DNA of 64,000 bases, taken from positions 4,224,001-4,288,000 of the forward strand of contig OY764216.1 in the NCBI GenBank assembly GCA_963668315.1, written 5' to 3'. This document shows positions 31,458 to 56,664 of this stretch, in pieces. Source of the stretch: Spirochaetia bacterium (GTDB taxonomy: Bacteria; Spirochaetota; Spirochaetia; DSM-2461). The notes below the pieces were generated by a model that saw only the letters and a list, made by a program, of their open reading frames with translations, made no database searches and was not told where the DNA came from. Numbering within the stretch: the stretch's first letter is position 1; every line of letters begins with the position of its first letter. The position numbers were made by a program, and so were the translations under genes.

Positions 31458-31462
31458 ACTAA

Positions 31463-32632: not shown

Positions 32633-32684
32633 TTATGCCTCCTGAAGCGTTTTAACATTATTAAATGAAAACTCTTTCTTCCAA

Positions 32685-35908: not shown

Positions 35909-35931
35909 AAAGCCCCGTCACTCCCTTCGAT

Positions 35932-36646: not shown

Positions 36647-36860
36647 GTGGTTGATCATACTTGTTACCTTACTTGCGGGTCAAGCTGATTTACTATAGAA
36701 AGGCATATTATCAACTTGGAGGATTGTTATTTATGGAATAATTTTTATTTTTATTTCTGGAAAGTATAATTCACACATTCTTCAATTTTGCCCCATCATC
36801 CCTTCATATCACAAGAGTTAGGACTGTTTTTTTTGTTTAATGTTGTATATTCTTAGGCAT

Positions 36861-40900: not shown

Positions 40901-41771
40901 AGAAGTCCAATCTCCTTCTTCTCCGAAAGAGAAAGTCCTGCCCATGATGTTTCCCGTACAGAAGGGAGATCCTGAGAAAAAACCTCTTTTCATGGTGGCT
41001 GGTATGTACTTTAACCGGTATGATCATGAATCAGAGGAAGAGGGGCAGAGGAAATACGAAGAGGATTACTTCCGCTACTTCAGCACCCTGGTCAAAAACA
41101 TCGGAACGAGCCAACCAATATATGGTTTTCGACCAAAGGGGATTTTCCTTAATGAAAAACCCCATAAAAATGTTAAAGCAATGGCGGAGTCTTATATTAC
41201 AGAAATGAAAAAGATTCAGCCCGAAGGGCCTTATCTGATAGGAGGGGAATGTATCGGAGGTATTATTACTTACGAAATGGCTATGCAATTACAAGGACAG
41301 GGAGAGGAGGTCAAACACCTTATACTGATAGATACGTTCTATCCCAGGGCTAAAGCCATGTTTCGGGATGCTATTCGAGTAACATTATGGAGGTTTAAAG
41401 ACGAATTTATTACACCTCTGAAAAACAAGGAAAAATCCTTCATTAACCGTCTGTTAACCGTAATTAATCACTTGCAATTGTTTTTATTTCCCATAGGAAA
41501 AAAACAGAAAAATTTAAAACAGGTACAATACAGTAATGTGGCTTATATGTATCGGTTAATGAGTTATTCTCTTAAATTGTACGATAAAAAAAATATAACC
41601 CTTCTCGTGAATCAAGAGTGGAGCGATGACATCAGCCCCACCCTCAATTGGAAGAAAAAGCATATATTAAACGTAAATCTAATAACCGTTCCCGGAACTC
41701 ATGTTTCCTGTTTAACGGATTACGGACATATAACGGGCAAACACATAAGAGATATAATTGATAATGATTAA
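37938..41771 (+). CDS. Single-module type I PKS: KS-AT-ACP-TE (TE nucleophile Cys)
   Basis: KS DPQHRLFLE, TACSTSL, HGTGT, KPNIGH; AT GHSLGE and HAYH (malonyl-type); ACP MGGHSVLA; TE GGECIGG and VPGTH; no reductive domains. Confidence 0.92.
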   Translation: MKDRNYYESLEGAIAVIGMSGAFSKSKDINEYWQNILAGRECIDDLTAEELQAAGIPQELSDNPLYVRRTAGLESAKEFDPAFFGYTPAEARLMDPQHRLFLEHSWKCLEDGNIIPDHYDGLIGVFGGCSQNNYLLKNLIYSDQADKAGAFQIMIGNDKDYLTTKVSYKLNLKGPSITMQTACSTSLTAIQQGCLSLLNYQSDMALCGGASVNVPYRGGYLYQDGMIFSPDGHCRAFDKDANGTVFGDGVGVVLLKRFEDALEDGDLIHAIIRGSAINNDGSEKVGYTAPGVKAQAEVVATALAVADVSADTIGYVETHGTGTLMGDPIELAALTEAFRMSTEEKNYCHIGSAKPNIGHLDAAAGVASFIKAVMVLKTGTIPPLTNFTSPNPALNIEETPFTITSTPVKWDTEVIPRRAGVSALGVGGTNVHLVLEEYTPSKEPSPEPGDKPNLLVFSAKSEESLTRQKELFSTFLKKKDISLPSLAYTLQKKRVPFPYRDFLVTDGKGEYDESTFINKKSLPCNGSPEIAFIFTGQGSQYPNMGKSLYESVPFIKKIMDHGFSILERTHNLPLKEIIYPEGSASLKESEMKLMQTTYTQPALFLLEYALARYLIILGLQPAYLLGHSLGEYTAACLSGIFTFEDALSLVAERGRIMQTAPKGSMISIPLSRNAIESMITGDQLQVSVINAPDRCVVSGSDEAVDLFQKELTEKDIRHSRLKTSHAYHSFLMDSILDEFASSFSSVTFHKPEIPIITNQSTESFGSENMESAEYWVDQLRQPVDFDKGISLLLKNKNVTLVEVGPGNTLITLAKLNPDMKGDNLCLPTVRNPKQQTPDHTFFLTALGKLWQKGHSLHWDEFYGERKPEYIRIPTYEFDNRSYWIEGIKSKKSPLPIEETEENYIEKREELTVKEKVLHVWSEIFGNDDIGETDNFYDMGGHSVLATQLLSRINETFNLEIGMGALLMEPTPANSLALVEEQLPRKKPTEVQSPSSPKEKVLPMMFPVQKGDPEKKPLFMVAGMYFNRYDHESEEEGQRKYEEDYFRYFSTLVKNIGTSQPIYGFRPKGIFLNEKPHKNVKAMAESYITEMKKIQPEGPYLIGGECIGGIITYEMAMQLQGQGEEVKHLILIDTFYPRAKAMFRDAIRVTLWRFKDEFITPLKNKEKSFINRLLTVINHLQLFLFPIGKKQKNLKQVQYSNVAYMYRLMSYSLKLYDKKNITLLVNQEWSDDISPTLNWKKKHILNVNLITVPGTHVSCLTDYGHITGKHIRDIIDND

Positions 41772-42014
41772 TCAGCCAGCCAGGCGTCCTTCGATATAGC
41801 GAACCATCTTGTCCACGGAACCGAAGTTGTCACGGACCATATCTTCCGTTTCCACTTCGAATCCGTGGGTATTTTTCATATATGCCGATATCTCTACCAG
41901 ACCGAAAGAATCAATAATCCCCTCATCGATGAGCGATTTATCGTGGGGGATCTCTTCTAATTCCACCATAAAATTGTCCGCGATAAATTCGAGTAAACCT
42001 TTTTTAATTTCCAT
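41772..42014 (-). CDS. Discrete acyl/aminoacyl carrier protein
   Basis: SLIDEGIIDSFGLVEI phosphopantetheine motif; 80 aa, acidic. Confidence 0.88.
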   Translation of the reverse strand: MEIKKGLLEFIADNFMVELEEIPHDKSLIDEGIIDSFGLVEISAYMKNTHGFEVETEDMVRDNFGSVDKMVRYIEGRLAG

Positions 42015-42054
42015 AACTGTTCAAGCTCCTTAAATGTATGAAAGATATTTTATC

Positions 42055-44028
42055 TTAATTCTCATGAATTTCCACCCGTTTAAGTGATTCATCCAGACTT
42101 TCATGTCGGGGATTATCCATGGCCCGGCTGATCATCTGAGTGGAAAGAATGAAAGTAATGAGCATATTGTCCCTATAGCCTATCTGCTTTGGCATGCGGC
42201 GGGAAAACTTATTTATCAGCCGATTCACATATTTCTTATCGAATACTCCGGCCATATCCACCGCTTCCTCCGAAAGAAAGGGAGCCGCTTCGTCGGTCAG
42301 ACGTCCGTCGGAGAAGAAAGATTTCAGATCCGGCGCCTGATAAGGCTGCTTGGGCCTGTCTATAATGGAAGGGGGCACCACATCCCGGAAAGCATCGCGA
42401 AGGATGTGCTTCTGAGAAAATCCCTTAAGTTTGTAGTCGTCAGGATAGGCGAAGGCCTTTTCCACCAGACGGTGATCAAGGAAGGGATAGCGTCCCTCAA
42501 CACTGTGTCCCATGGACATCCGGTCCCCCTGGGAAGAGAGAAGGTAGCCGGGCAACAGGGTTTTCATCTCTAGATACTGCTCCTTCTGCATAAGGGACCA
42601 TTTCCCATAATCCGCAGGGAGGGTCTCTTTCAGGTTGGCCAGCAGTTCCTCCTTCTCATAGGTGACGGCATAATCCTTGTTCAGGTAGTTCCCCAGAATC
42701 CGGTTGTTATTCATGCGGATATTCAGGCCCATCAGATCGTTGTCGAAATCATCAAGGAAATCCTCGTAGTACATCTTCATGAAACCCATCTGGGTCTTGT
42801 CCTTGTAGTGGGAGAGGTGGGGATAAAGCTGGCCCAGCAGCTTTTCCACAGGGGCGTTATCCCTGTTGTCCCTCCACATCTGCAGCATCCGTACTTCCTT
42901 GAAAACATCGTAGCCGCAGAGAATCTCGTCGGCCGCTTCACCGGTCAAAACGACCTTGATGTTCTCTTCCCTCACCTTTCGGCTCAACAGGTAGAGAGGT
43001 ACTGGAGCGGTACGGAAGACGGGCCGTTCAAAGTGATAAGCCGCTTCGCCCAGGTAACTATTGATCATAGTGTAATCAATCTTCAAATCGATATGCTCGG
43101 AATTCAGCCGTTCCACCATCTCCTGCTGATAGACCGACTCATCATAGCCTTTGTCCGTAAAGGAGACAGCAAATGTCTTGAACCGGTCCTTATTGTGGAT
43201 TTTCGTCAGATGGGCAATAACCGAGGAGTCGATTCCCCCGGAAAGATAATTCCCTACGGGCACGTCACTTCTAAGCCGCAGGCGCACGGCGTCGCTTAGA
43301 AGCTCCACCATCTCCTCCCGGGCCTGTTCGTAATCCGGCGTCGGCAAGTCGTAATTCTCTCCCAGCTGATAATAGGTAAACCGGCGGGGCTCTTCCCCGA
43401 TGCGGTATTCAGCATAATCTCCGGCGGGCAGGGAAATAATATCGTTGTAGACGGTCCGGTCTCCCAGAGTGTTCCAGAGAAGACCATGCTCGTAGAGATT
43501 CTTCATGTGAAAGGAACGGTGGTATCCGGGAATCTGATCAAAGCACTTGAGTTCAGAGGCGAAATAGAAAACCCCCATATGGTCCAGCACATAGAGAGGA
43601 CGGATACCGTAGCGGTCCCGGGCCACAGTCAGAACCTTCTCCTTTTTATCCCAAAGGAGGATGGCGAACTGTCCGTTAAAGGAGGAAAAGGCGGCGGGAC
43701 CGTCCAGTTCAAAGGCCTTGAGAACTATCTCCGTGTCGCAGGTCGTCTTGAATTGAACACCCCGCTTCTCCATCTCCGCCCTAAGCTCAATGAAGTTAAA
43801 AACCTCCCCGTTAAAGGAGATGACGTATCTTCCCGTCGACATAGGCTGATGCCCCCCGGAGAGATCCTGAATGGAAAGCCGGGCATGGCCCAGGGCGACA
43901 TGGGAATCGGTGTAGAGCCCCCATCCGTCGGGTCCCCGGTGGCCTAGAACGGAAATCATCTTCTTCAAGGTGTCCTTCTGTTCTTCTCGCTCTCTATAAT
44001 ATCCTAAAAATCCGGTTATTCCGCACAT
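42055..44028 (-). CDS. asnB: Glutamine-dependent amidotransferase, AsnB family
   Basis: MCGI N-terminal Cys, HRGPD, HARLSI, NGEVFN, LSGGIDSS, LTGEAADE, EGRYPFLD. Confidence 0.9.
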   Translation of the reverse strand: MCGITGFLGYYREREEQKDTLKKMISVLGHRGPDGWGLYTDSHVALGHARLSIQDLSGGHQPMSTGRYVISFNGEVFNFIELRAEMEKRGVQFKTTCDTEIVLKAFELDGPAAFSSFNGQFAILLWDKKEKVLTVARDRYGIRPLYVLDHMGVFYFASELKCFDQIPGYHRSFHMKNLYEHGLLWNTLGDRTVYNDIISLPAGDYAEYRIGEEPRRFTYYQLGENYDLPTPDYEQAREEMVELLSDAVRLRLRSDVPVGNYLSGGIDSSVIAHLTKIHNKDRFKTFAVSFTDKGYDESVYQQEMVERLNSEHIDLKIDYTMINSYLGEAAYHFERPVFRTAPVPLYLLSRKVREENIKVVLTGEAADEILCGYDVFKEVRMLQMWRDNRDNAPVEKLLGQLYPHLSHYKDKTQMGFMKMYYEDFLDDFDNDLMGLNIRMNNNRILGNYLNKDYAVTYEKEELLANLKETLPADYGKWSLMQKEQYLEMKTLLPGYLLSSQGDRMSMGHSVEGRYPFLDHRLVEKAFAYPDDYKLKGFSQKHILRDAFRDVVPPSIIDRPKQPYQAPDLKSFFSDGRLTDEAAPFLSEEAVDMAGVFDKKYVNRLINKFSRRMPKQIGYRDNMLITFILSTQMISRAMDNPRHESLDESLKRVEIHEN

Positions 44029-44029
44029 A

Positions 44030-47000
44030 CTATCGTTTCCTTACATTCTTCAGACGCTGAGCCGCATGACGGCTCCGTTCTGCCCGATCCAACAATTTAC
44101 CTATCCCCTCATCGGAAGAATTCATTTCCTGTCCCAGGTATCCCGCCAGACCTTTGACGGTGGTATGGATGAAAAGATCCGTCACGGGAATAGCACGGCC
44201 GAACCGCTCAGAGAGTTCCCGCTGAAGTTGAATAATGTGGAGAGAGGAACCTCCCAATTCAAAAAAGTTTTCCTCCCTGCCCACCTTCTCCAGCCCCAGC
44301 AGCTTCTTCCAGAGATCGGCGATAAACCCCTCCCCTTCCCCTTCGGGCAGAGTAAAGGGCTTATCCGACGGGGTATGGCAGATTCCCGGCTCGGGCAGGT
44401 TCTTCCTGTCCAGCTTCCCATTGGCGTTAAGGCTGATTTGCTCAACGAAGATAATCCGCTTGGGAACCATATGAAGAGGAAGACGCCGGCTCAGAAAAGA
44501 GATCAGCTCTTCCACGCTCAGCTCTTCACGTTTGACTATATAGGCAACAAGGGACTGATCGGCCCCAAACTCTCCGTGAACAATCACGACGGCCGTTTCC
44601 ACGGCGGGGTGGTCGTTAATCCCATTTTCGATTTCACCCAGCTCAATACGAAGCCCATGGAGCTGCACCTGGCTGTCGTTCCGGCCCAGATAGAGAATCT
44701 CCCCCTTGAGATTCCACTGCCCCAGATCTCCCGTCTTATACATCCGCCCCCCATCGAAAGGGTTGGGAACAAAGCGTTCCGCCGTCAGCTCCGGCTTGTT
44801 CAGATAACCCCGGGCCAGCTGAACACCGGCCAGATAAATCTCTCCGGTAACGCCGGGTGGCAGAGGATTCAATGCCTCATCCAAAATATGGATTTTCGTA
44901 TTGGCGACAGGCCTTCCTATGGGTACAACCCGGCAATCAGGCTTACAAGGCCAGTAGGTTACATCGATGGATGCCTCGGTAGGCCCGTAAAGATTATGGA
45001 GCCGGACATGGGGCAGCGTTTCATAGAACTCCCGCACCACCGCGGCGGGCAGAGCTTCTCCACTACACATCACATCACGCAGAGAGGGACAGTCCCCGGG
45101 ACGACAGCTCTTTAGGAACTCCCGTAGCATGGAGGGTACGAAATGGATAAGGGAAATATTCTCTCTCCCTATCGTTTCGATAAGATAGCCATTGTCCTTG
45201 TGACCCTCCGGTTCGGCGATGACCAGGGGCACTCCTTTCATCAAAGGCCACCAGAATTCCCAGCCGGAGACATCAAAATTATAGGGCGTCTTCTGGAAAA
45301 GCACATCCTTCCCGGTCAGCTCATACTCCTCATCCATCCACAAGATACGGTTAATCAAACCTCTATGGGTGATTTCCACTCCCTTGGGGCGACCGGTTGA
45401 ACCGGAGGTATAAAGGATGTAAACCCGGGAATCGGGATCTATAGCCGGGAAAAGCCCCTCTTCCTTACCGGCTGAAAAATCAAAGGTATCCAGGGCGGTA
45501 AAACCTTCCAGCCCGGAAAAGAGCGGGCGGTATTTCTCGTTGGAGAGGATCAGAGATAGCTGTGAATCCCCGCGAATATAAGCGATGTAATCGGCGGGAA
45601 GAGTCGGCTCGATAGGCAGATAGGTTCCCCCGGCCAGAACGATGGCGTACATACCTATGACCATCTCGAAAGAGCGTTCCAGGGAGAGGCCGACAATCGT
45701 CTCCGGACCGACGCCCTTCTCCTTAAGGTAAGCCGCTACAATCCTTACACGCCGGGCCAGTTCGCCGTAAGTCATGGTTTCGTCGCGGAAAATCAGCGCC
45801 CTTTCTTCGGGCCGAATCCGAACCTGTTCCAGAAAGGCGTCAATGACGCCGCCGGTAATCGGATAGTCCCGTTCCGTCCCATTCCAGGCAGCAATCATGT
45901 CCCGGCTCCGATCATCCATCACGCCCATGGAACCTACAGCGAGACTGTCCCTGTCCAGCCCCTGTTCCAGAAGAATCAGGAAGGAGGAAAAAAATCCCTC
46001 CACCCTCTCCCGGGTAAAAAGATCGGAACAGTACTCCACGGCCCAGCGGAAACGGTCGTTTTCCTGCCAGAAGTAAAAAAACAGATCCAGCTGGGCCGCA
46101 TCGGGAGCCGCATCCAGGGATTTAACATCCAATCCATCCAACTTCAATCCCATGGGGTGTTCGAAGGTGAATCCCACTTGGAAGAGAGGATTGTACTTGC
46201 CATCCCGCTTTCCCCTATTCAGCTTAACCACTTCCAGATAGGGAACGTTCTGGTTACGGTGCATGCCCAGCATCTTAACCCTGATCTGACGTAAAAGTTT
46301 CCTGAAGGTCATCCCCTCCCCGATGTTCAGGCAGAGGGGCAGGATATTCACAAAACAGCCGATGGTATCCTCAAAACCTTCCGGCCGGTTTGTCCGAGGA
46401 ATACCGATGGAGAAACGATTCTGACCGGAGAACCGGTTCAGAAAAACCGCGTAAGCAGAGAGAAGCACGAGAAATGGGTCGGAGCCCTGATTCCGGCAAT
46501 AGGCATCAAGTTTATCCTTAAGAGGACCGGGAAGCGACCCAAAAATCCGATGGCCCCGGGATGAGGGTATGGGCTGCCTATCTTTATCGGCAGGAAGGTT
46601 CAGTAAAGAACTTTCCAGGTGTTCATTCTCCCAGTAGGCAAGCATCTCTCGGTATTTGTCCGAATTGGCGAATTGTTCATACCAAACACCGTAATCGTCA
46701 TAGGAGCGGACCGGCTTCAGATCGGGTTCCCGGGATTTGGATAGTGAGTTATAGATTTCACTAAACTCGCGGGAAAAAATCTCCTTGGAACGAAGATCGA
46801 AAAGAATGTGATGAAAGAGGAATAGGAGATAGATTTGGGAGTCCTTTCTCCAGAGATGAGCTCGAAATAGGGGTTCCTCGTTCAGAACGAAGGGTGTATT
46901 AATGACCGAGGCACAATCCTCCGTTGAATAGAAACTATCATGATAGACAGGTTCTACCTTACCACCCCAATCATACCGCTCAGACATGATATCAAGGACC

Positions 47001-47146
47001 CGCTTAAATTGAATGCGATCAAGGGGACCGATGATTTCAAAGAGCGAGGCGAGGTTGTAAGCCCTGTTATCCGGATTCAGACGGGATACGAGCCGAAACT
47101 GTTCTTGTATGAGTGAGATTTTTGACTCTCCTTTCCCTTTTTCCAA
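44030..47146 (-). CDS. NRPS module C-A(Ser predicted)-T
   Basis: C-domain HHILFD; A-domain YTSGSTGRPKG, NLYGPTE, YKTGDL; pocket residues read by eye DVWHMSLIDK (Ser-type); T FFELGGSSL; basic helical C-terminal tail; TTG start. Confidence 0.88.
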   Translation of the reverse strand: MEKGKGESKISLIQEQFRLVSRLNPDNRAYNLASLFEIIGPLDRIQFKRVLDIMSERYDWGGKVEPVYHDSFYSTEDCASVINTPFVLNEEPLFRAHLWRKDSQIYLLFLFHHILFDLRSKEIFSREFSEIYNSLSKSREPDLKPVRSYDDYGVWYEQFANSDKYREMLAYWENEHLESSLLNLPADKDRQPIPSSRGHRIFGSLPGPLKDKLDAYCRNQGSDPFLVLLSAYAVFLNRFSGQNRFSIGIPRTNRPEGFEDTIGCFVNILPLCLNIGEGMTFRKLLRQIRVKMLGMHRNQNVPYLEVVKLNRGKRDGKYNPLFQVGFTFEHPMGLKLDGLDVKSLDAAPDAAQLDLFFYFWQENDRFRWAVEYCSDLFTRERVEGFFSSFLILLEQGLDRDSLAVGSMGVMDDRSRDMIAAWNGTERDYPITGGVIDAFLEQVRIRPEERALIFRDETMTYGELARRVRIVAAYLKEKGVGPETIVGLSLERSFEMVIGMYAIVLAGGTYLPIEPTLPADYIAYIRGDSQLSLILSNEKYRPLFSGLEGFTALDTFDFSAGKEEGLFPAIDPDSRVYILYTSGSTGRPKGVEITHRGLINRILWMDEEYELTGKDVLFQKTPYNFDVSGWEFWWPLMKGVPLVIAEPEGHKDNGYLIETIGRENISLIHFVPSMLREFLKSCRPGDCPSLRDVMCSGEALPAAVVREFYETLPHVRLHNLYGPTEASIDVTYWPCKPDCRVVPIGRPVANTKIHILDEALNPLPPGVTGEIYLAGVQLARGYLNKPELTAERFVPNPFDGGRMYKTGDLGQWNLKGEILYLGRNDSQVQLHGLRIELGEIENGINDHPAVETAVVIVHGEFGADQSLVAYIVKREELSVEELISFLSRRLPLHMVPKRIIFVEQISLNANGKLDRKNLPEPGICHTPSDKPFTLPEGEGEGFIADLWKKLLGLEKVGREENFFELGGSSLHIIQLQRELSERFGRAIPVTDLFIHTTVKGLAGYLGQEMNSSDEGIGKLLDRAERSRHAAQRLKNVRKR

Positions 47147-47208
47147 TTTATCCCTTCTTCCCTTTATTCCATATCAATATCACGATGTCCCAGATGTCAG
47201 AGCATTGA

Positions 47209-49638
47209 TTATCTATCTATTTTCTCTTTAAGAAAATCGGCAAGCTTAACGACATGGGGTTGATTCAAGATCCCCATATGATCATCGGGGAGTTCCAGAA
47301 TACCAACTTGACCGGATGTCAAATCATTCCATCCCAGATCATCACTGAAGCTTTCTCCCTTGCTGTAAACATTTGTCAAAGCCCTTATCAGATAAATATC
47401 CCCGTCAATGGGAGTGGCTACCTTATCAAATACTTCGATGGCCTGATCATTGATGAAATCCCGCATCGCCTCGATATAAGCCTGATCTGGATTTAATTTA
47501 TTCTTTGGCTCTCCAGGTTTTCCCGATCTGTGTTTAAGAGACCTTAAGGCAGAGTATATCTTACCGAACGGCGTAAGTCTACGTGCATGGGGAAGATGGG
47601 AATCCAGAATAAACAGTTCCCCCCTGGCCCCTTCATTCGCTTTAATGAGTTTTGATGCTTCAAAAGCTATCATGCCCGCAATTGAAACTCCCAGAATATG
47701 ACAGGGCCCCTGGGGATAATACTTGCGGATATCCCTTAAATAAGCCCCGGCCATTCCCTGGATGGACACATACTCCCACTCGTCAATGGTTCCCCGCTGT
47801 ATATTATCTATCAGCTGTTCCTCATAGGGAAGGAATACACCATAAACTGGTCTCTCCCCTTCAAAACAGGCGGCCAGTTCTGAATAGATGTCAATTCCCC
47901 CCAGACAGAAGAGAGGGACCCCTTCAGTCGTATTATTCAGAAGGAGCACGGTCATCTCCTTATCTGATCCGGATTTAGCCTGATTTATCATATCATCGAT
48001 CACGGGATTCATGAAGAACGCCCCCAAGGGAACCGTCAGTCCGCAGAACTCACCAATCTCCCTTAAAAGCTGAACCGCCAGAATTGAATTCCCCCCAATT
48101 TCAAAAAAATTCTGATCTGTCGAGATATCCTCCCGCTGTAGAACCCTTTTCCAGACAAAGAGGATTTTCTCCTTTAAAGACAGGTCATCCCCATTTCCCT
48201 CAAGAACGATCTCCTTCACCTGCGGAAGGGGTAGATTTTTTCTGTCAATCTTGCCGTTTGTGTTCAGGAGAAACTTATCGAGGCGGACGAAATAGGCGGG
48301 GATCATATAATCGGGAAGAATCCGGGAAAGATGCTCCACCAGCACTCGCTCCTCCACAGGTTTACGTTCTATCAAATAGGCCACCAGATCCTTCATACCC
48401 TTGCGGACAACTTGAGGATGGACAACTGCACTTGCGATCTCGTCAAGCGTCAGAAGAGCGCTCTCGATTTCTCCCAGTTCGATCCGGAAACCGCGGATTT
48501 TCACCTGAAAGTCGGAACGGCCCAGACACTCAAGCCTGCCGTCGGCCATATAACGGACCAGATCTCCGGTCTTATATATGGTCTCCCCGGGGGTAAAGGG
48601 ATTGGGGATAAACACTTTCTCGGTCAAATCGGGCCTTTTAAAATAACCCGCAGCCAGCCCTTTGCCTCCTATGAAAAGATCCCCTTCGACCCCATGGAGC
48701 ACTTTATTCATATTCTCATCAAGAATATAGATTTCCGTATTATCAATGGGTTCACCTATGGATATAGGTTTATCCCTCTCCACTTTTTCGATGGTAGACC
48801 ACACGGTCGTTTCTGTCGGACCATACATGTTCCAAAGCTCGCCGCAACGGTCCAATAATTCCTCTGCCAGTTCCGGCGTTAACGCTTCCCCTCCGCATAA
48901 CACCTTCAGATTATCCTTCCCTTTCCAGCCTGCGTCGATAAGCATTCTCCATGTTACGGGAGTAGCCTGCATTACGGTAATGTCATAACTATCCAGGGCA
49001 GAAATTATGGAATCGGGATCATGTGATTCATTTTTATCCAGAAGAAACAATTGCGCACCCGTACGAATAGGCAAGAAAATCTCAAGTACGGAAATATCAA
49101 AGGATACCGTTGTGACAGCAAGAAGTCGATCATTTGCTGTTAATCCGGGTTTCTTAGCCATGGAATCGAGAAAATTGTCCATGGCAGGGCGGGGTATCAT
49201 AACCCCCTTAGGTTTACCGGTGGAACCGGAAGTAAAGATAATGTAGGCAATACTCTCTCTGTCCTGGCAAAACTCCCGGCTCACTGGTTCTGGAACACTC
49301 TCATCGGAGGAAAGAGAATCCACATCAATCTTGACAGAATCAGAAGGAAGCTTTGACAGATAATGGCCATGAGTAAGAATCAGGTCCGGTTTAACATCCT
49401 CCAGAATCATATTAATCCTTTCGGCAGGATGGTCCGGGTCCAGAGGGATATAAGTGTTGCCGGTAATAAGGCAAGCATTTACTGCGGCGACAAGAGCAGG
49501 AGTTCTATCCAGGTAGATACCTACGTTTAACCCCGTTTTGGGGAATTCTGAAATCCTATGACAGATAAGATTAATAAGATTCCCAAACTCAACTTTTTCC
49601 CCATGGTAGACTAGCGTATCCATTGCTTCTTTCGTCAT
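47209..49638 (-). CDS. NRPS-like protein A(Gly predicted)-T-TE
   Basis: FTSGSTGKPKG, NMYGPTETTVW, YKTGDL; pocket residues read by eye DILQLGMVWK (Gly-type); T FFEIGGNSIL; TE GVSIAG and DDHM. Confidence 0.88.
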   Translation of the reverse strand: MTKEAMDTLVYHGEKVEFGNLINLICHRISEFPKTGLNVGIYLDRTPALVAAVNACLITGNTYIPLDPDHPAERINMILEDVKPDLILTHGHYLSKLPSDSVKIDVDSLSSDESVPEPVSREFCQDRESIAYIIFTSGSTGKPKGVMIPRPAMDNFLDSMAKKPGLTANDRLLAVTTVSFDISVLEIFLPIRTGAQLFLLDKNESHDPDSIISALDSYDITVMQATPVTWRMLIDAGWKGKDNLKVLCGGEALTPELAEELLDRCGELWNMYGPTETTVWSTIEKVERDKPISIGEPIDNTEIYILDENMNKVLHGVEGDLFIGGKGLAAGYFKRPDLTEKVFIPNPFTPGETIYKTGDLVRYMADGRLECLGRSDFQVKIRGFRIELGEIESALLTLDEIASAVVHPQVVRKGMKDLVAYLIERKPVEERVLVEHLSRILPDYMIPAYFVRLDKFLLNTNGKIDRKNLPLPQVKEIVLEGNGDDLSLKEKILFVWKRVLQREDISTDQNFFEIGGNSILAVQLLREIGEFCGLTVPLGAFFMNPVIDDMINQAKSGSDKEMTVLLLNNTTEGVPLFCLGGIDIYSELAACFEGERPVYGVFLPYEEQLIDNIQRGTIDEWEYVSIQGMAGAYLRDIRKYYPQGPCHILGVSIAGMIAFEASKLIKANEGARGELFILDSHLPHARRLTPFGKIYSALRSLKHRSGKPGEPKNKLNPDQAYIEAMRDFINDQAIEVFDKVATPIDGDIYLIRALTNVYSKGESFSDDLGWNDLTSGQVGILELPDDHMGILNQPHVVKLADFLKEKIDR

Positions 49639-49670
49639 GATCTTTCTCCTACATTATTATGCAATAGATT

Positions 49671-50588
49671 TCAGTCGTATAAACCGGCAGGAGGTGCGGG
49701 GATTTTTTCCAAACGGGCCCCCAGTTTAAAGCGGCTTCTCTGCCATGCTCTGAGAGATTTTCGAAATGCCAGATCGGGATATCTTTTCATAGGGCTGAAC
49801 ATGGCCTTCAGGTATCCCAAGAGGATATAAAATCCTCCGACGATATAGGGTTTTTCGGTACTTCTGTAAATAGAAATAGCAATGACATACCAAAGGGGAG
49901 TCCCCATAAAGTACTGTCCCCTTCCCCATCGAAGACGACCGGTGTAAATTCCTTTGAAAGAAGATCCCATCTGCCTTAGATGAATAAATTCAAGCTCCCT
50001 ATTCCTGATGCTTCGCGTCCTCCAACCGAACATACGGGCCCGGTGAAAGGTAATACCGTCCCAGTGTACTTCTTTAACAAAACCGCCGATCTGTTCAAAA
50101 CATTCCCGGCGATAAAAATTTATCATGCCGGCGACCATCTCATCGTTGTGACGCTCTTCTACCAGTTTACCGTTTTCATTAACATAGGGCTTACCGCTGG
50201 CCGCTCCCAATTGGGGGTCCTTATCAAAATAATCAAGAAGGGTATCAAAATATCTACTCTTGAAGTCAATATCTCCGTCCATCTTGCAGATAAAATCATA
50301 ATCTTTGCTTTCGATCCTGTCATAACCATAATAGAAAGCTTCAACCACTCCGGGACCGACAGCCCGTTCTCCCCGATCCGGTTTCTGAATAAGCCGAATC
50401 CACGGATTATTCTTACTCGCCTCACGAACCAGCTCCGCCGTTCTGTCCTTGGAACCGTCATCCACGACGATCCATTCGACGGGAAGAACACCTTCCTGAT
50501 TAATTAGGGAATCTATCGTCTTTTGAATGTACTCTTCTTCATCTCTCACGGGAGACACTATTACGATTTTGTCTTTTCTTTGGCTCAT
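49671..50588 (-). CDS. Glycosyltransferase family 2
   Basis: VSPVRDEE, VVDDGSKD, KMDGD, CFEQIGGF. Confidence 0.9.
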   Translation of the reverse strand: MSQRKDKIVIVSPVRDEEEYIQKTIDSLINQEGVLPVEWIVVDDGSKDRTAELVREASKNNPWIRLIQKPDRGERAVGPGVVEAFYYGYDRIESKDYDFICKMDGDIDFKSRYFDTLLDYFDKDPQLGAASGKPYVNENGKLVEERHNDEMVAGMINFYRRECFEQIGGFVKEVHWDGITFHRARMFGWRTRSIRNRELEFIHLRQMGSSFKGIYTGRLRWGRGQYFMGTPLWYVIAISIYRSTEKPYIVGGFYILLGYLKAMFSPMKRYPDLAFRKSLRAWQRSRFKLGARLEKIPAPPAGLYD

Positions 50589-50614
50589 TTTCCTATCCTT
50601 ATTACTATGTACTA

Positions 50615-51679
50615 CTATAGATCTTTTCGAATCAATTTATCCAACTCAACGGCAATCTTTTTATTGTTCTCCACCGTAATATGACCATCACTCTTAAAAT
50701 TAACTGGATTTTTCGTCGAAACTATATCCCCGGTATTAAGATAATCCACCTCCAAATCGTCAAGAAAAGAAGTAAAACTTTCTCCCAAAGCATCATTGTA
50801 TTTCTGCGTTTCAATGAGAATAACGACAGGAGTACAACCGTATTCCCTCGCTTCCTTGACGAAAAGAGAAATGAGATCTTCAGCCTGTGAAACGATCTCT
50901 TCATTAAACTTATGATTGTGGAATACTTTTTCCGTTACATTATTATTATGCTTACTCTTATACCACCGTTTAATAAAACGTCCTATTATTGAATAATCAA
51001 GGACATTACGTTTATAGATAAAGGGGGAATAGGATTTATCGTACTTCTCCAGCAAATCAAGATTTTCATTCCACAACTCTCTATCAGACAACGCCGTCTG
51101 CAAATCTTCAAAGGAGTTAATATAAGGAGTAATCTGTTCATAACCTTCCGGAGAGACAACAAACTGGGAGTAAAATGACCCCATGGGAGTATCCACCCCA
51201 ATCGTGTCGTTAGTCATAGCATTAATATACTTTAGAGAAGAATCCAAAACTCCGAGAGCTGCAAATCTAGATGTACATACATCCTTATCGACCAAGAAAG
51301 AGGATAGTGAGTGATTTATAGGAGAAGCGGGTCCATCAATCTTTCTTACGAGAAGCTCATTATCCAACCCTATCAGCTGATCGGCGATATGATTACTAAA
51401 CGACATACCATAAAAAGTAATATCTGCGGTTGTGCCTCTTTGTCTGAATTTCTCGTCGCTAATCCAACCGGAATGAAGTACTGAATTCGCTGGAATTTCC
51501 TTTTTGAACATTTCACGAATTTGCATTTCCGTAGAGAGCCCATAGGAAAAAAATTTATTTAGCTTCTCATTATTAAGAACTTTCAGTAAAAACTGTGAAC
51601 CAATATCAAAAACCACAAGCCAGACGATAATGATCAGCGATGTTCTTTCTAATTTGTGAATAATTTCTCTCATATTCAA
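50615..51679 (-). CDS. Membrane-anchored SGNH-like (AlgJ/AlgX/PatB/DltD-analogous) protein
   Basis: N-terminal TM helix; FYGMSFS (GxS-like) and C-terminal SDGH (DxH); 6 bp downstream of the MBOAT gene. Confidence 0.55.
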   Translation of the reverse strand: MNMREIIHKLERTSLIIIVWLVVFDIGSQFLLKVLNNEKLNKFFSYGLSTEMQIREMFKKEIPANSVLHSGWISDEKFRQRGTTADITFYGMSFSNHIADQLIGLDNELLVRKIDGPASPINHSLSSFLVDKDVCTSRFAALGVLDSSLKYINAMTNDTIGVDTPMGSFYSQFVVSPEGYEQITPYINSFEDLQTALSDRELWNENLDLLEKYDKSYSPFIYKRNVLDYSIIGRFIKRWYKSKHNNNVTEKVFHNHKFNEEIVSQAEDLISLFVKEAREYGCTPVVILIETQKYNDALGESFTSFLDDLEVDYLNTGDIVSTKNPVNFKSDGHITVENNKKIAVELDKLIRKDL

Positions 51680-51685
51680 GCTCCT

Positions 51686-53089
51686 TTAGAATTGAAAGTA
51701 GATAAACTCAGCCGGAGCGTTAGTCATGCCCATAAATAGAATGAATAAAGACAGAGCATACATAAAAGACCGTACGACTTTATGGTAGGAAAAATAAAAA
51801 GCTGCATTATCGTGGACAACACTAATGACATCAAATATAAACAGAAACATTATACCTATTAACGTTGCGATGGAAGGAATATGTATAATAGAATGAAGCG
51901 TATCTAGATGAATCAGCAATTCCGTAAACTGAACTATCTGGCTTAGTGAATTAGCCCTAAATAATAGCCATCCGTAGCATGTCACCTGGAAGAAAAATAC
52001 AATAGCTAACAAATTGATGGCAGGATTTTTCGTTCTTCTTTTCTTCTTTTGAAAAAGCCGATAGAGGACAAGAATAACACCCTGGTATGTACCCCAGAGA
52101 ACAAAATTCCAGGCAGCCCCATGCCAGAGTCCTCCCAAAACCATAGTAATAATCAGATTGCGATAGGTACAGAAAGAACCTTTCCGATTGCCACCCAATG
52201 GAATATAAAGATAGTCTCTAAGCCAGGAGGAGAGACTAATGTGCCATCGATTCCAGAATTCACTGGGATCTTTGGAAATATAGGGGACTCGGAAATTCTC
52301 CATAAGTTCAAAGCCCATCATCTTAGAAACACCTCTGGCGATATCGGAATATCCAGAAAAATCACAGTAGATTTGCAAAGCAAAAAGATAAGTGGCCAAT
52401 ATGACATCTATCCCAGTAACTCCGCCGGCAGCATTATAGATCTGATTTACAGAGGGAGCCACCCCATCGGCAATAACAACTTTCTTAAAAAGGCCGAAAA
52501 CTATGAGAAACAATCCCCTTCGGATTTTCTCATAGGTCACAACTCTTTCGGTAGTAACATTAGGTAGAAGGTTTTTCGCCCTTTCAATAGGCCCGGCTAC
52601 CAACTGGGGAAAGAAAGAAACAAATAGAGCAAAATCAAAAAAATTGTCACAAGGCTTCAATTCTTTCCGATAGACATCAATTGTATAACTCATCGTTTGA
52701 AAAGTATAGAAGGATATCCCCACAGGAAGAAGAATGTTCAATGTGGAAAAATTCACATTCAGATTAAATGTTTGCAGAAAATCGATCAAAGACTGGGTGA
52801 AAAAATTAAAATACTTGAAAAAAGCTAAAATACCAAGATTACAAAACATGGAGAGAAATAGCCATTTTTTACGAACAAGCTTATCAACGGAAGCATCAAG
52901 TTTACGTCCTACCATATAATCGATTACTGTGGAAATAACGATCAAACTCAGAAAACGCCAATTCCAACATCCATAAAAAAAATAACTGGCAATTAGAAGA
53001 ATTCTATTCTGCCATTTGTGTTGCACACTTAAATAGAGTACATAAACAATGGCAAAAAAAATAAGGAAGGACAAACTATTGAACGTCAT
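51686..53089 (-). CDS. MBOAT-family O-acyltransferase (AlgI/PatA/DltB-like)
   Basis: LPVGISFYTFQTMSY, FFPQLVAGPIER, YCDFSGYSDIA, FWNRWHISLSSWLRDYLYIPLGG, GLWHGA. Confidence 0.93.
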   Translation of the reverse strand: MTFNSLSFLIFFAIVYVLYLSVQHKWQNRILLIASYFFYGCWNWRFLSLIVISTVIDYMVGRKLDASVDKLVRKKWLFLSMFCNLGILAFFKYFNFFTQSLIDFLQTFNLNVNFSTLNILLPVGISFYTFQTMSYTIDVYRKELKPCDNFFDFALFVSFFPQLVAGPIERAKNLLPNVTTERVVTYEKIRRGLFLIVFGLFKKVVIADGVAPSVNQIYNAAGGVTGIDVILATYLFALQIYCDFSGYSDIARGVSKMMGFELMENFRVPYISKDPSEFWNRWHISLSSWLRDYLYIPLGGNRKGSFCTYRNLIITMVLGGLWHGAAWNFVLWGTYQGVILVLYRLFQKKKRRTKNPAINLLAIVFFFQVTCYGWLLFRANSLSQIVQFTELLIHLDTLHSIIHIPSIATLIGIMFLFIFDVISVVHDNAAFYFSYHKVVRSFMYALSLFILFMGMTNAPAEFIYFQF

Positions 53090-53455
53090 ACTTTTTTTTA
53101 CTTTTCCTTAAAACATTAGTTATCGATAAAGTTATCACAGATTATCATTTTTTTCTAACATTCATAAATGAAATATTTTTTTTAACCCATATCACTTTTA
53201 ATACAAAAAAAAGGAGAAAACATTTGGTGAATTAAATTTTAACCAATAATTAATATCCCTACTTGATAACAATATCAGATCTGCCCTAAAAACAATAAAA
53301 ATAAAACCATAGTGCATAATAATACCTTACTATAAATGTGTTATTTTTATATAAAGGTGCTAGAATATTATTTGTGATACAGGATGACAAATGGAAAGTA
53401 ATATATTTTCCGAAAATAGTTATCCGCAATTATATAATAAAGGAAATAATACTCC

Positions 53456-54430
53456 ATGGAACTCTCCATAATCATTGTCAGTTACAATACAAAAGAAATA
53501 CTGAAGAAATGCCTCCAACTTTTATATAATGATATTGGAAATATAAATACCGAAATTCTTATTATAGATAATGCCTCCCATGACGGATCACCGGATATGA
53601 TAGAACAAGATTTTCCCAATGTGCGTCTTATCCGCTGCGAAAAGAATTATGGTTTTGGTAAAGCAAATAATATTGCGATGAAAGAAGCCAAGGGAGATTA
53701 CTTTCTTCTCTTGAACTCTGACGCCTACGTTAAACCGGGTGTGATTGACTCAACTCTGGATTATATGAAAAATAATTCCGATGTTGGGATTCTTGGTGTA
53801 AAATTGGTTGATAAGGAAGGCAACCTACAGCCATCCGCCCGGCATTTTCCTTCTTCCTTCTCAAAGTTTATTGTTTTAGCCGGAATATCAAAACATTTTC
53901 CTCATTCAAGATTATTAGGGGGACCTGACTATTCCTGGTGGGACCATAGTTCCATTAAAAATGTCGACTGGGTTGTGGGAGCTTACTTCATGATCCGAAA
54001 AGATGTTGCTGAGCAAGTCGGTTATTTTGATGAAAGATATTTTCTATACTACGAAGAGACCGATTTTTGTCTGCAGGTCAAAAGAAAAGGCTATAAGGTT
54101 ATATTTTATCCCTATGCCGAGGTAATCCATCTTGGAGGAGAAAGCAGTAAAAAAACGGATAAGCGTGTCTCTGAAGCGGGCAAACAGATCACAAGTATAA
54201 GGGTCGACAGCGAGCAAAAATTCCATTGGAAAAATTTTGGGATTATTCGCATGCTTAGTATTGTTTACGTGGAAGTGTTATGGCTTAGATTATCCATAGG
54301 GAAAAACATTTTATTCCCCCGGAAGGATTCAAAGACAAAAATGAAAAATGCGCGTCTAATAATTGAGCTGCATAAAGATAATATGAAAAATAAAAATTAT
54401 CGCAATACGAGTTATGACTATGCTAAGTGA
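53456..54430 (+). CDS. Glycosyltransferase family 2 (WbbL-like)
   Basis: IIIVSYNT, IDNASHDGS, GFGKANN, LLLNSD, FDERYFLYYEETD. Confidence 0.9.
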   Translation: MELSIIIVSYNTKEILKKCLQLLYNDIGNINTEILIIDNASHDGSPDMIEQDFPNVRLIRCEKNYGFGKANNIAMKEAKGDYFLLLNSDAYVKPGVIDSTLDYMKNNSDVGILGVKLVDKEGNLQPSARHFPSSFSKFIVLAGISKHFPHSRLLGGPDYSWWDHSSIKNVDWVVGAYFMIRKDVAEQVGYFDERYFLYYEETDFCLQVKRKGYKVIFYPYAEVIHLGGESSKKTDKRVSEAGKQITSIRVDSEQKFHWKNFGIIRMLSIVYVEVLWLRLSIGKNILFPRKDSKTKMKNARLIIELHKDNMKNKNYRNTSYDYAK

Positions 54431-54929
54431 ATTACAAAAAGATCTAGCAACATATGGAGGAAACAGATGGGCTCCGGGTTACCGGGTCATGCGTGTCTAC
54501 CGATTCGGGAATTGGCGCTATGAAATAAAGAATCCACTTCTCCGGAAGCCCTTCTCCCTACTATATAAATATCTATATCGAAAAATTATAGAAAAAACAG
54601 GAATTGAACTCCCTTGTGAGGCAAGGGTAGGTCAGAATTTCCGAATCGACCATCAATCGGGAATTGTGGTTAGTGGATTTACGGAAATCGGTGATAACTG
54701 TGTCATTAGAAACGGTGTTACCATAGGATTGAAAAATACTGACGTACTAAAAGCACCAAAAATCGGTAATAATGTAGATATTGGTACCGGAGCGAAAATC
54801 CTTGGAGATATAACTATTGGAGACAATGTTCATATTGGAGCCAATGCAGTTGTCCTGATAGATATTCCATCCAATTCTCTAGCAGTAGGAACACCTGCGC
54901 GCATTATTCCCAAGGAAAACAAAGCATGA
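54414..54929 (+). CDS. Hexapeptide-repeat O-acetyltransferase (WcaB/CysE-like)
   Basis: TGIELP, IDHQSGIVV, IGDNCVIRNGVTIG, PKIGNNVDIGTGAKILG, IGANAVV, VGTPAR. Confidence 0.88.
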   Translation: MTMLSELQKDLATYGGNRWAPGYRVMRVYRFGNWRYEIKNPLLRKPFSLLYKYLYRKIIEKTGIELPCEARVGQNFRIDHQSGIVVSGFTEIGDNCVIRNGVTIGLKNTDVLKAPKIGNNVDIGTGAKILGDITIGDNVHIGANAVVLIDIPSNSLAVGTPARIIPKENKA

Positions 54930-55912
54930 ATCAGCCACTTATTTCAATCGTTATTATTGGCCGCAACGAGGGAGAACGTCTTGGTCGCTGCATCAAAGCT
55001 GTACAGGATCTTGACTATCCCACTCAAAAAAAAGAAATCATCTATGTTGATTCCCGTTCTTCCGACGGTAGCGTAGCATATGCTAAAAAGCTTGGCGTTG
55101 AAAAAGTTTTCACCCTTAAACAGGAAAAAACCTGCGCTGCCATGGGACGCAACATGGGCCTAAGTCAAGCCAAGGGAGAATTAATACTTTTCCTTGACGG
55201 AGACACTCAGATATCAAGGGACTTTTTAACTGTGGCAGTTCCCCACTTCGACAAGGAAGAAATTGCAATTGTTTACGGCCGCCGAAACGAAATACATCCT
55301 GAATCGCTCTATATACGGCTGTGCGGTTCTGACTGGAGCCAGAGGATTCCCGGCTTTACAGAAACGTCAGCCGGAGATGTTCTCATAAGATCAAGTGTCA
55401 TTAGAGATATCGGAGGTTACAAGGAGATAATTGCCGGAGAAGATCCGGAGATGTCCAATAGAGTAATCAACTCCGGTTTTAAAATTCTGTTTATTAATAA
55501 GGACATGGTAAACCATGATTTAGGCATACGCAGTTTTCATCAATACTGGAAGCATTCCGTAAGAAGCGGTTTCGCCTATGCCGTTGTAGCCAATATGACA
55601 AAAAAAAGAGAGATACCCCTTTGGGTGGATAAGAATAGAAAGATTATGTTACAGGGATCAATTTACTTGCTGGCTCCTATTATTACAATCCTTGTTTCAC
55701 TAATTTTGAAAAGCATTCTACCTGCTATTTTCTATTTGATTCTGGGATTTCTCATTGTAGTACGTTCGTATATGAAAAATCGTAAGAAAGGTATGAACGG
55801 CGGGTTCAATTTATTCTATTCCATGCACAGTCATTTTTTAAAAATCCCAATGCTCATTGGACAACTTACTTACCATACGAATAAAAATAAATCCCTCATA
55901 GAATATAAATAG
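54926..55912 (+). CDS. Glycosyltransferase family 2 with C-terminal TM helices
   Basis: VIIGRNEG, YVDSRSSDGS, FLDGD, AGEDPE. Confidence 0.88.
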   Translation: MNQPLISIVIIGRNEGERLGRCIKAVQDLDYPTQKKEIIYVDSRSSDGSVAYAKKLGVEKVFTLKQEKTCAAMGRNMGLSQAKGELILFLDGDTQISRDFLTVAVPHFDKEEIAIVYGRRNEIHPESLYIRLCGSDWSQRIPGFTETSAGDVLIRSSVIRDIGGYKEIIAGEDPEMSNRVINSGFKILFINKDMVNHDLGIRSFHQYWKHSVRSGFAYAVVANMTKKREIPLWVDKNRKIMLQGSIYLLAPIITILVSLILKSILPAIFYLILGFLIVVRSYMKNRKKGMNGGFNLFYSMHSHFLKIPMLIGQLTYHTNKNKSLIEYK

Positions 55913-55920
55913 GACTAATC

Positions 55921-56655: not shown

Positions 56656-56664
56656 AATTTTCCC

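Follow-up and report, generated by a model that had tools for sequence, protein, structure and literature searches.

A run of seven co-oriented genes, coding for a membrane-bound O-acyltransferase (MBOAT), an SGNH-fold partner, a glycosyltransferase (GT), two nonribosomal peptide synthetase (NRPS) proteins, an AsnB-type amidotransferase, and a free acyl carrier protein (ACP), was analyzed in a 64,000-nucleotide stretch of a Spirochaetia bacterium genome (assembly GCA_963668315.1, contig OY764216.1, forward-strand positions 4,224,001 to 4,288,000; hereafter the window, with coordinates counted from its first base). The interpretation we favor, at a confidence somewhat short of even, is that of a composite operon, in which an MBOAT/SGNH pair of the acyl-coenzyme A (acyl-CoA) type has been joined to a glycan-associated NRPS-AsnB-ACP module that needs no MBOAT. 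The pair would be self-sufficient and, by analogy with PatA/PatB, would O-acylate, probably acetylate, an exported polysaccharide. The NRPS, AsnB, and ACP genes, together with a convergent polyketide synthase (PKS) gene, appear to form a conserved cassette that belongs, independently of the pair, to the polysaccharide loci of this bacterial class, the predicted product being a small Gly/Ser-containing unit for the glycan, possibly amidated and malonate extended.

Organization and composition of the seven-gene run

The seven open reading frames (ORFs) and the adjoining PKS gene are as follows (A, adenylation; C, condensation; T, carrier; TE, thioesterase; KS, ketosynthase; AT, acyltransferase; amino acid specificities are predicted).

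51686..53089, minus strand: MBOAT O-acyltransferase, 467 aa, assigned to the PatA/AlgI type (PF03062, E 5e-21)
50615..51679, minus strand: membrane-anchored protein, 354 aa, SGNH fold by AlphaFold model and structure matches, no curated family
49671..50588, minus strand: GT2 glycosyltransferase (GT2_305), 305 aa, hydrophobic C terminus (PF00535, E 4e-15)
47209..49638, minus strand: NRPS A(Gly)-T-TE, 809 aa (Pfam AMP-binding, PP-binding, and Thioesterase)
44030..47146, minus strand: NRPS C-A(Ser)-T, 1038 aa (Pfam Condensation, AMP-binding, and PP-binding)
42055..44028, minus strand: glutamine-dependent asparagine synthase-type amidotransferase AsnB, 657 aa (Asn_synthase and GATase; TIGR01536)
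41772..42014, minus strand: free carrier protein ACP, 80 aa, Ser36 in IIDSFG (PF00550)
37938..41771, plus strand: type I PKS KS-AT-ACP-TE, 1277 aa, convergent, its stop abutting that of the ACP gene (Pfam)

According to the ORF listing, the run extends from 41772 to 53089 with successive gaps of 6, 26, 32, 62, 1, and 40 bp; the gene order, spacing, and domain content given in a preliminary description of the run were exact when checked against this listing and the Pfam and NCBIfam matches. A public protein collection lists the 354-aa protein as 352 aa, which would make the first gap 12 bp. An AGGAG-like ribosome-binding site can be read in each of the six gaps, and no terminator-like site was detected inside them by a scan that performed at chance level overall (15 terminators found versus 14.3 expected), as did its promoter part (24 versus 23.5). 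The seven genes probably form a single, cotranscribed unit. The sub-block comprising C-A-T, AsnB, and ACP is syntenic in six other genomes, indicating that the grouping is more than chance.

The G+C content is 0.54 in the chromosome backbone (first 24 kb of the window) and lower throughout the 25- to 62-kb region, which ends at transposase genes. It is 0.37 for both the MBOAT and 354-aa genes, 0.46 for GT2_305 and A-T-TE as well as for the PKS, and 0.51 to 0.52 for C-A-T and AsnB, these steps within the run revealing it as a mosaic. The level of the MBOAT pair is shared with a divergent GT block (0.37 to 0.42), an AT3 (Acyl_transf_3) gene (0.36), and the gene for an adenylation-carrier-AT3 fusion (A-T-AT3; 0.39), all described below. 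The run is separated from the divergent GT genes by the following feature.

53090..53455: divergent intergenic region, AT-rich, 366 bp, between the MBOAT arm and the GT arm

Two promoter-like sites on the minus strand (53390-53362 and 53344-53316) fall within it, both from the chance-level scan. The possibility of a variant locus in sequencing reads was examined in runs X4 (share, 0.43) and X1 over positions 41000 to 60999 and rejected; X4 gave short identical contigs from scattered positions in the NRPS, MBOAT, and GT genes, i.e., the same organism at low coverage. At the other end of the run, the PKS and ACP genes converge at 41771/41772 with zero bases between their stop codons, and in a congeneric genome (G001) the ORFs run into each other by about 10 bases; transcription of both genes would lead to collision or overlap of the transcripts.

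The MBOAT/SGNH pair

The MBOAT scores 75.7 bits against PF03062 (cutoff, 27) and ends in FIYFQF, its last six residues thus fitting the FxYxxF hexapeptide. I463, Y464, Q466, and F467 are invariant across a 19-sequence alignment (A3), as is His323 of the WHG motif, which aligns to His336 of DltB. In the accessible part of PMC12148441, PatA is described as auto-acetylating the Tyr of its C-terminal FxYxxF hexapeptide from acetyl-CoA. The hexapeptide is borne there on two extra helices that are missing from DltB, which uses the microprotein DltX and the carrier DltC; FxYxxF is assigned to acyl-CoA-using MBOATs of the PatA/AlgI type, and the MBOAT/SGNH pathways other than Dlt are presented as having no carrier protein (PMC12148441, same part). 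Tyr464 is accordingly placed as the predicted acyl-shuttle residue of the window protein.

A profile of the MBOAT and 18 relatives matched DltB (6bug_C) at E 1.4e-40 over profile positions 78 to 343 of 433, with about 90 extra C-terminal profile positions beyond the DltB alignment. Against the DltB model TIGR04091 the MBOAT reached 176.1 bits, well under the cutoff of 375 and similar to two other MBOATs of the same genome (178 and 159 bits); in control genomes the model gave matches in three (Bacillus subtilis, Bacteroides thetaiotaomicron, and Lactococcus lactis), above the cutoff in two. Both paralogs end in FIYF[Q/R]F; the partner is a DUF459 protein in one case and AlgX-like in the other. 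Because of its FIYFQF end, the partial DltB alignment, and a sub-cutoff DltB score like that of the paralogs, the MBOAT is on sequence grounds a member of the PatA/AlgI class and not a DltB. By analogy, its donor is probably an acyl-CoA and the transferred group probably acetyl.

The partner gene starts 6 bp after the MBOAT gene. The 354-aa protein had no Pfam or NCBIfam match at E<=0.001, including none to a DltD model, and only 15 homologs in a collection of 5.8 billion clusters, those of 56 to 72% identity among them. It carries an N-terminal hydrophobic transmembrane helix; in the alignment of the 15 sequences (A1), Ser93 (YGMSF) is invariant and Asp331-Gly-His333, with its D-G-H spacing, is kept in at least 90%. 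The AlphaFold model (pLDDT 91.1, pTM 0.88) gave no match at E<=0.001 when searched with Foldseek against the Protein Data Bank (PDB), the best weak rows being GDSL, DltD, and PatB proteins at E 1.5e-3 or weaker; solved DltD structures (6pfx, 3bma, and 6o93) were weak matches, with E 0.014 to 0.036 and TM 0.32 to 0.35. A wide search with VIA-align matched the model to SGNH/GDSL proteins at Z 13 to 17, including 4rsh (Z 16.8, root mean square deviation [rmsd] 2.5, 158 aligned residues), PatB 7tjb (Z 15.8, rmsd 2.9, 174 aligned), OatA 6vjp (Z 14.0), and OafB 6se1 (Z 13.8). At the level of the structural model, this confirms the SGNH fold and makes the MBOAT-SGNH pairing of the preliminary description a real one. 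Judging from its sequence, the protein is a new subfamily of SGNH proteins, of which no description turned up in a literature search with poor coverage of subscription journals.

The pair resembles the PatA/PatB and AlgI-type O-acetylation systems, as set out in the accessible part of PMC12148441, in the catalytic His and the two extra C-terminal helices ending in FxYxxF of the MBOAT, in the adjacent membrane-anchored SGNH-fold partner with a conserved Ser, and in its location in a cell envelope polymer locus. Unlike the partners in those systems, the 354-aa protein falls outside the curated families and shares no more than about 10 to 13% identity with solved SGNH proteins. It also differs in having Asp-Gly-His where SGNH proteins usually have DxxH spacing.

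Scans with the 354-aa family recovered 40 genome loci and 31 metagenome loci (71 in total, with at least three contigs represented in duplicate). When metagenomes were scanned with the 354-aa sequence by itself, no relative was found, and a family alignment (A2) retrieved only relatives of 25 to 30% identity. The named genome records were mostly from cyanobacteria, with a few from Cytophagia, Gammaproteobacteria, Planctomycetota, and Myxococcales. An MBOAT gene was immediately upstream of the 354-aa homolog in 36 of the 40 genome loci and present in 67 of all 71, and in 54 of the 71 an MBOAT ORF ended in FIY[S/F/L]QF. By tblastn with the window proteins and a carrier domain profile, an adenylation or carrier domain was detected in only two of the 71 loci: L072, whose A-T-TE protein is 43% identical to the 880-aa A-T-AT3 protein of the window and related to it rather than to the NRPS proteins, and L043, with one PP-binding domain. 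No C-A-T or free ACP was found within the flanks fetched for the 71 loci, many of them short, and an AsnB fragment was found in one. The pair was surrounded by polysaccharide genes, and in L072 and L079 these included a GT2_305 homolog and the GT2-hexapeptide-GT2 block known from the window. In P0005, a 354-aa homolog on a 4170-base contig, the predicted C terminus runs into sequence resembling an MBOAT N terminus, which implies that the SGNH gene precedes the MBOAT gene there, the reverse of the window order.

A housekeeping role of the window pair in peptidoglycan O-acetylation was considered and judged unlikely because the second MBOAT of the genome, that with the DUF459 partner, is matched at 41 to 42% in all three other genomes of the genus and because the MBOAT/354-aa pair sits in a low-G+C polysaccharide island.

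The NRPS, AsnB, ACP, and PKS genes

Both adenylation domains pass the TIGR01733 cutoff of 317.4 bits (398 for A-T-TE and 405 for C-A-T), and the carrier motifs GGNS and GGSS are present in the NRPS proteins. Stachelhaus positions were read by motif and checked in the alignment. The resulting code is DILQLGMVWK for A-T-TE, with DLPQLGMVWK for its ortholog in genome G005 and DILQLGMIWK for the A domain fused to the PKS in the latter; for C-A-T it is DVWHMSLIDK in the window and DVWH[M/I/V]SLIDK across the window, G005, and G001. Read against reference codes for Gly and Ser, the A-T-TE code fits Gly and the C-A-T code fits Ser, so that the substrate calls of the preliminary description hold as predictions. 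DVWHFSLVDK is the Ser code quoted in the accessible part of PMC8313283.

The condensation domain of C-A-T scores 221.7 bits against PF00668, has HHILFD in agreement with HHxxxD, and has as its nearest solved chains the elongation C domains of Txo2, Txo1, TomB, and TycC, consistent with an elongation-type domain. The TE domain of A-T-TE is a weak Pfam match (31 bits; cutoff, 26.4), with GVSIAG instead of GxSxG and with DDH present. AsnB scores 455.2 bits against TIGR01536 (cutoff, 267.1) and its N-terminal MCGI provides the Cys nucleophile, which makes it a member of that family. The free ACP is under both DltC cutoffs (35.9 versus 68 bits for PRK05087 and 22.6 versus 52.35 for TIGR01688); its best PDB matches are the DltC chains 8jf2 and 6bug at E ~1e-5, tied with a peptidyl carrier protein and AcpM.

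Conservation of the module in polysaccharide loci

Among the 401 genomes compared from the class, seven have an AsnB ortholog at E<=1e-170; with a limit of E<=1e-150, three of 38 genomes of the family have one. C-A-T, AsnB, and ACP are adjacent in G000 (the window's genome), G001 (same genus), G005, G033, G075, G101, and G316, and the KS-AT-ACP-TE PKS adjoins the module in all of these save G316, whose 4.3-kb contig holds module genes only and ends first. An A(Gly) domain usually accompanies the C-A(Ser)-T/AsnB/ACP/PKS set. AsnB is 82% identical in G001 and 49 to 51% in five further genomes, always adjoining C-A-T and ACP; C-A-T is 66% identical in G001 and 34 to 37% in G005, G033, G075, and G101, and its homologs at 61 to 66% identity carry the source name "Spirochaetales bacterium". 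The ACP is 89% identical in G001 and 53% in G005, and the A-T-TE protein has a full-length ortholog (46 to 47%) in G005. A PKS ortholog (50%) adjoins the ACP gene in G001; the PKS is fused to A(Gly)-T in G005 and also to an A domain in G033, G075, and G101. GT2_305 has a 74% ortholog upstream of C-A-T in G001 and homologs of 44 to 46% in the MBOAT/SGNH loci L072 and L079.

In all six genomes with usable flanks, that of the window included, the module lies inside a polysaccharide locus with glycosyltransferase genes. Together with a second locus of the window's genome (see below), this upholds the placement of NRPS genes in polysaccharide transcription units made in the preliminary description. 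Wzx is beside the module in G001, G005, and G033, Wza in G005 and G033, GNVR in G033, and the initiating transferase Bac_transf in G000 and G005; AT3 genes flank it in four of the six (G000, G005, G033, and G075). No homolog of the MBOAT or the 354-aa protein was found near the module in the stretches fetched from the six other genomes, only the window's genome having the pair beside it.

The gene order in G001 is Wzx, a 435-aa ORF without a Pfam match, RgpF, GT4, GT2_305 (74%), a 294-aa gene, a methyltransferase-like gene, C-A-T (66%), AsnB (82%), ACP (89%), and the convergent PKS (50%); the sole MBOAT match of this genome is about 317 kb from the module on the same contig. In G005, Wza, LuxR, Bac_transf, Wzx, several GT genes, the GT2-Hexapep-GT2 block (53/68/51%), and GT4 are followed by A-T-TE (46%), Hexapep, C-A-T, AsnB, ACP, a 348-aa PP-loop-like gene, A-T-KS-AT-ACP-TE, and AT3, with junctions from GT4 through A-T-TE, Hexapep, C-A-T, and AsnB either overlapping or 18 to 35 bp long. 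G033 has GT4 genes, Wzx, GT4, Hexapep, AT3, a phosphopantetheinyl transferase (PPTase) gene, C-A-T, AsnB, ACP, the A-fused PKS, an esterase-like alpha/beta hydrolase, a methyltransferase-like gene, GNVR, and Wza. The order is similar in G075 and G101, with GT2/GT4/Hexapep/AT3 or GT2 genes.

Two further genes are conserved with the module elsewhere and absent from the window. One is the 348-aa gene between ACP and the A-fused PKS (L088 8433-9479 in G005), with weak matches to PP-loop ATPases (QueC/DUF7411); the other is a methyltransferase-like gene of 299 to 301 aa, located after the PKS in G033, G075, and G101 and before C-A-T in G001. The loci concerned include, besides L088, L095/L096 and L101 of G033 and G316.

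All the domains of the locus are already known. In a literature search mostly without subscription journals, no description of a cassette of this kind, i.e., an NRPS(-PKS) cassette conserved in Wzx/Wzy-type loci, turned up; the search gave only the Collimonas case discussed below.

Other genes of the locus and its surroundings

Further genes of the locus are listed here.

25710..26918, minus strand: Bac_transf initiating sugar-phosphate transferase, 402 aa (PF02397, E 1e-60)
36840..37934, plus strand: AT3 (Acyl_transf_3) membrane acyltransferase, 364 aa (PF01757, E 2.5e-22)
53456..56655, plus strand: GT2 (324 aa), hexapeptide acyltransferase (171 aa), GT2 (328 aa), and WecG/TagA-family GT (244 aa) (Pfam)
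56665..59307, minus strand: adenylation-carrier-AT3 fusion (A-T-AT3), 880 aa (Pfam A and T; C-terminal AT3-related multipass membrane domain)
59434..61290, minus strand: 618-aa protein with an N-terminal hydrophobic segment, no Pfam match

The Bac_transf protein is 54% identical to that of the G005 locus, which, like the MBOAT/SGNH loci L072 and L079, also shares the GT2-Hexapep-GT2 block. The 880-aa A-T-AT3 protein is a member of a family with the same architecture and lies in the polysaccharide locus, outside the seven-gene run. Its C-terminal domain matches PF01757 at E 0.014 over the full profile length. The family comprises 73 homologs of about 860 to 890 aa, 11 with a precomputed PF01757 match, and nine of 24 aligned members match PF01757; a few homologs bear an extra N-terminal C domain (1415 to 1421 aa). 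The AT3 assignment rests on these PF01757 comparisons of the 880-aa protein, its homologs, and the aligned members, an hhalign comparison of the family (A5) with three AT3 proteins (A6) being not significant (probability, 0.02). The Stachelhaus code of this protein, SFGSEGH-RK, is without Asp235, the residue of A domains that binds the alpha-amino group, so the predicted substrate is an acid other than an alpha-amino acid. Nothing on A-T-AT3 proteins turned up in the literature searched, in which subscription journals were mostly not covered. The 618-aa protein is probably a secreted beta-helix protein; it has paralogs in neighboring loci, one with a PF13229 Beta_helix match.

Two further polysaccharide loci (L092 and L093; G000:C1:4300001-4340000) lie 12 to 52 kb past the window end. 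They contain a second C-A-T, 46% identical and with the code DVMHLCLIFK, between Wzx genes and an AsnB-like gene, together with two more AsnB genes, an ATP-grasp gene, beta-helix proteins, an MBOAT/AlgX-like pair, and an AMP-ligase paired with a NAD-synthase-like gene, a combination found in G005 as well.

Adjoining the AT3 and PKS genes, positions 29499 to 36456 hold a lasso-peptide-type gene set with an AsnB-like cyclase (652 aa) and a B2 transglutaminase-like protein (NF033537), along with an ABC exporter, an NTP_transf_5 protein, and a weakly HPr-kinase-like protein of 312 aa; in G001, the 312-aa and ABC genes are likewise beside the PKS. The low-G+C polysaccharide region is bounded at 62095 to 63998 by a Mutator-family transposase gene (387 aa) and the start of an IS3-type element, and L092 begins with a 24-residue end of the same transposase. 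A eukaryote-type hexokinase with Hexokinase_1/2 domains (10144-11493, minus strand) is encoded in the conserved backbone part of the window.

Alternative interpretations

The preliminary description had proposed an expanded Dlt-like pathway, with Gly or a Gly/Ser unit as the donor for the MBOAT. Applied to the residues identified here, such a unit, carried on the NRPS carriers or the ACP, would be handed to Tyr464 of the MBOAT, then to the SGNH partner, and finally to the glycan as an ester. We regard such a pathway as improbable, yet a number of observations do weigh against the separation of pair and module in our composite reading. The single co-oriented run, with its short gaps and ribosome-binding sites, looks like one transcription unit, which makes coexpression of the MBOAT pair and the NRPS genes likely. 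The best matches of the free ACP among NCBIfam models and solved structures are to DltC, although they are weak and other carriers do equally well. Homologs of the 354-aa protein (72% and 67%), C-A-T (72% and 71%), and A-T-AT3 (74% and 72%) were found on contigs of identical size, 173042 and 61105 bases, so that the combination of pair and NRPS probably recurs in two uncultured relatives, and in the related genome G014 a different NRPS (C-A-T-T-TE) lies 1.3 kb from an MBOAT/AlgX-like pair. The flanks searched around the loci were of at most 10 to 20 kb. The A-T-AT3 fusion suggests that a hand-off from carrier to membrane acyltransferase is used in this locus, and, since CoA and carrier proteins present the same phosphopantetheine arm, the fused motif alone does not exclude a carrier protein donor. 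A complex prediction for the MBOAT (A3) and the free ACP (A4) scored 0.00 twice without controls and is evidence neither way.

Against the hand-off stands the type of the MBOAT itself, whose fused FIYFQF motif belongs to a group for which the accessible part of PMC12148441 documents acyl-CoA use only. With 176 bits versus the 375 required of a DltB, the protein is also no more DltB-like than its paralogs. No carrier domain was detected in 69 of the 71 loci with the pair, the pair is not nearby in any of the six other genomes with the NRPS set, and the G+C content steps from 0.37 to 0.46 to 0.52 between the two parts of the run; in G001, moreover, the ACP is 89% conserved despite the remote position of the only MBOAT match. 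Like DltABCD(X), which D-alanylates teichoic acids, the window brings together, in one run, adenylation domains and a small free carrier with an MBOAT and its SGNH-fold partner, and the carrier has DltC as its best solved relatives, yet below the DltC cutoffs. Unlike DltB, the MBOAT carries the shuttle motif itself, which would make a separate DltX redundant; the A domains belong to true NRPS modules, which include C and TE domains, and have codes fitting Gly and Ser where that of Dlt is specific for D-Ala; and the pair and the NRPS set occur apart in other genomes. What stands of the Dlt-like proposal is therefore the architecture, the pairing, the Gly/Ser codes, and the glycan context, and what does not is the MBOAT as receiver of the carrier-bound unit.

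The NRPS and PKS could instead make a free, possibly glycosylated small metabolite or lipopeptide, with the sugar genes supplying or exporting the sugar or being unrelated and the MBOAT pair irrelevant. We consider this unlikely, if far from negligible. The modules are complete, with an elongation-type C domain, two TE domains, and, in G033, a PPTase gene beside the module; the lasso-peptide-type genes and ABC exporter adjoin the PKS; and, according to the accessible part of PMC8313283, production of the diffusible carenaemins by Collimonas requires a Wzy-type locus in addition to a PKS-NRPS cluster that includes a pyruvyl transferase. However, the module sits midway in polymer loci with Wzx, Wza, GNVR, and initiating transferase genes, and is often translationally coupled to GT genes, a setting seen in four families and in several different gene arrangements. 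In the second locus, the C-A-T between Wzx genes stands alone, with neither TE nor PKS, and no dedicated efflux or regulator gene is conserved with the module. Very improbable, in our estimate, is a Dlt-like logic built on AT3, in which the 364-aa AT3 protein by the PKS or the A-T-AT3 fusion, and not the MBOAT, would carry the product across the membrane. AT3 genes do flank the module in four of six genomes and the A-T-AT3 family (73 proteins) joins carrier and AT3, but no AT3 gene is present in the fetched stretches of G001 and G101, and OatA, the only AT3 mechanism described in the accessible part of PMC12148441, uses acetyl-CoA.

Other known systems share parts of the locus. The exosortase/PEP-CTERM exopolysaccharide genes (TIGR03098 ligase and TIGR03108 amidotransferase), which include an ACP and alpha/beta hydrolases, likewise combine an AMP-ligase, a carrier, an AsnB-type protein, and an alpha/beta-hydrolase domain in an exopolysaccharide locus. 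Unlike that set, the window has a real C domain and a PKS, and its proteins score far under the respective cutoffs (AsnB versus TIGR03108, 368 against 817 bits; A domains versus TIGR03098, 184 and 220 against 592). In Vibrio cholerae, AlmEFG decorates lipid A, an envelope glycolipid, by means of a glycine-activating adenylation enzyme and a carrier; in contrast, no AlmG-type acyltransferase is evident in the window, where the A domain is fused to T and TE and accompanied by C-A(Ser)-T and a PKS. The Collimonas carenaemin loci, as described in the accessible part of PMC8313283, resemble the window in that Wzy-type genes for sugar repeat units are functionally linked to a hybrid PKS-NRPS that includes a Ser-specific A domain, but the loci are separate, the domain set is different, and the product is a diffusible antifungal.

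Proposed pathway and implications

Under the composite operon interpretation, the C domain would condense the Gly of the A-T-TE protein with the Ser of the C-A-T protein; alternatively, Gly may serve as a PKS starter, as in the relatives whose PKS begins with A(Gly)-T. AsnB may then amidate a free carboxylate of the carrier-bound or a sugar intermediate, and one malonyl unit would be added by KS-AT-ACP-TE. A repeat-unit sugar would then receive the product from one of several candidate enzymes, namely, either TE domain, the hexapeptide acyltransferase, or an AT3 protein. After export, in a step modeled on PatA/PatB, His323 of the MBOAT would shift an acyl group to Tyr464, from which Ser93 of the 354-aa protein would pass it to the polymer.

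Taken one step further, and with slightly more reserve than the composite operon itself, we suggest that a conserved, probably spirochetal NRPS/PKS cassette (Gly, Ser, one malonyl extension, and AsnB amidation) would install, by covalent linkage, a nonribosomal aminoacyl or peptidyl substituent on a Wzx/Wzy surface polysaccharide and is here joined in one probable operon to an MBOAT-SGNH pair beside A-T-AT3. If so, a single locus would unite, in cassette, MBOAT-SGNH pair, and A-T-AT3 fusion, three ways of passing activated acyl groups to a glycan. It would offer natural test cases for which of MBOAT, AT3, and the A-T-AT3 fusion accept CoA versus carrier protein donors. Should the module make a free metabolite, on the other hand, it would be an ordinary hybrid biosynthetic gene cluster that happens to adjoin sugar genes.

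When bacterial surface glycans are decorated with amino acids or acyl groups, their charge, antigenicity, and resistance to enzymes change, and Dlt is the only well-understood carrier protein route by which such decorations are installed. A conserved NRPS-PKS cassette of polysaccharide loci would add to this a second route with a richer chemistry and would give genome miners reason not to score such clusters as ordinary secondary metabolite clusters.

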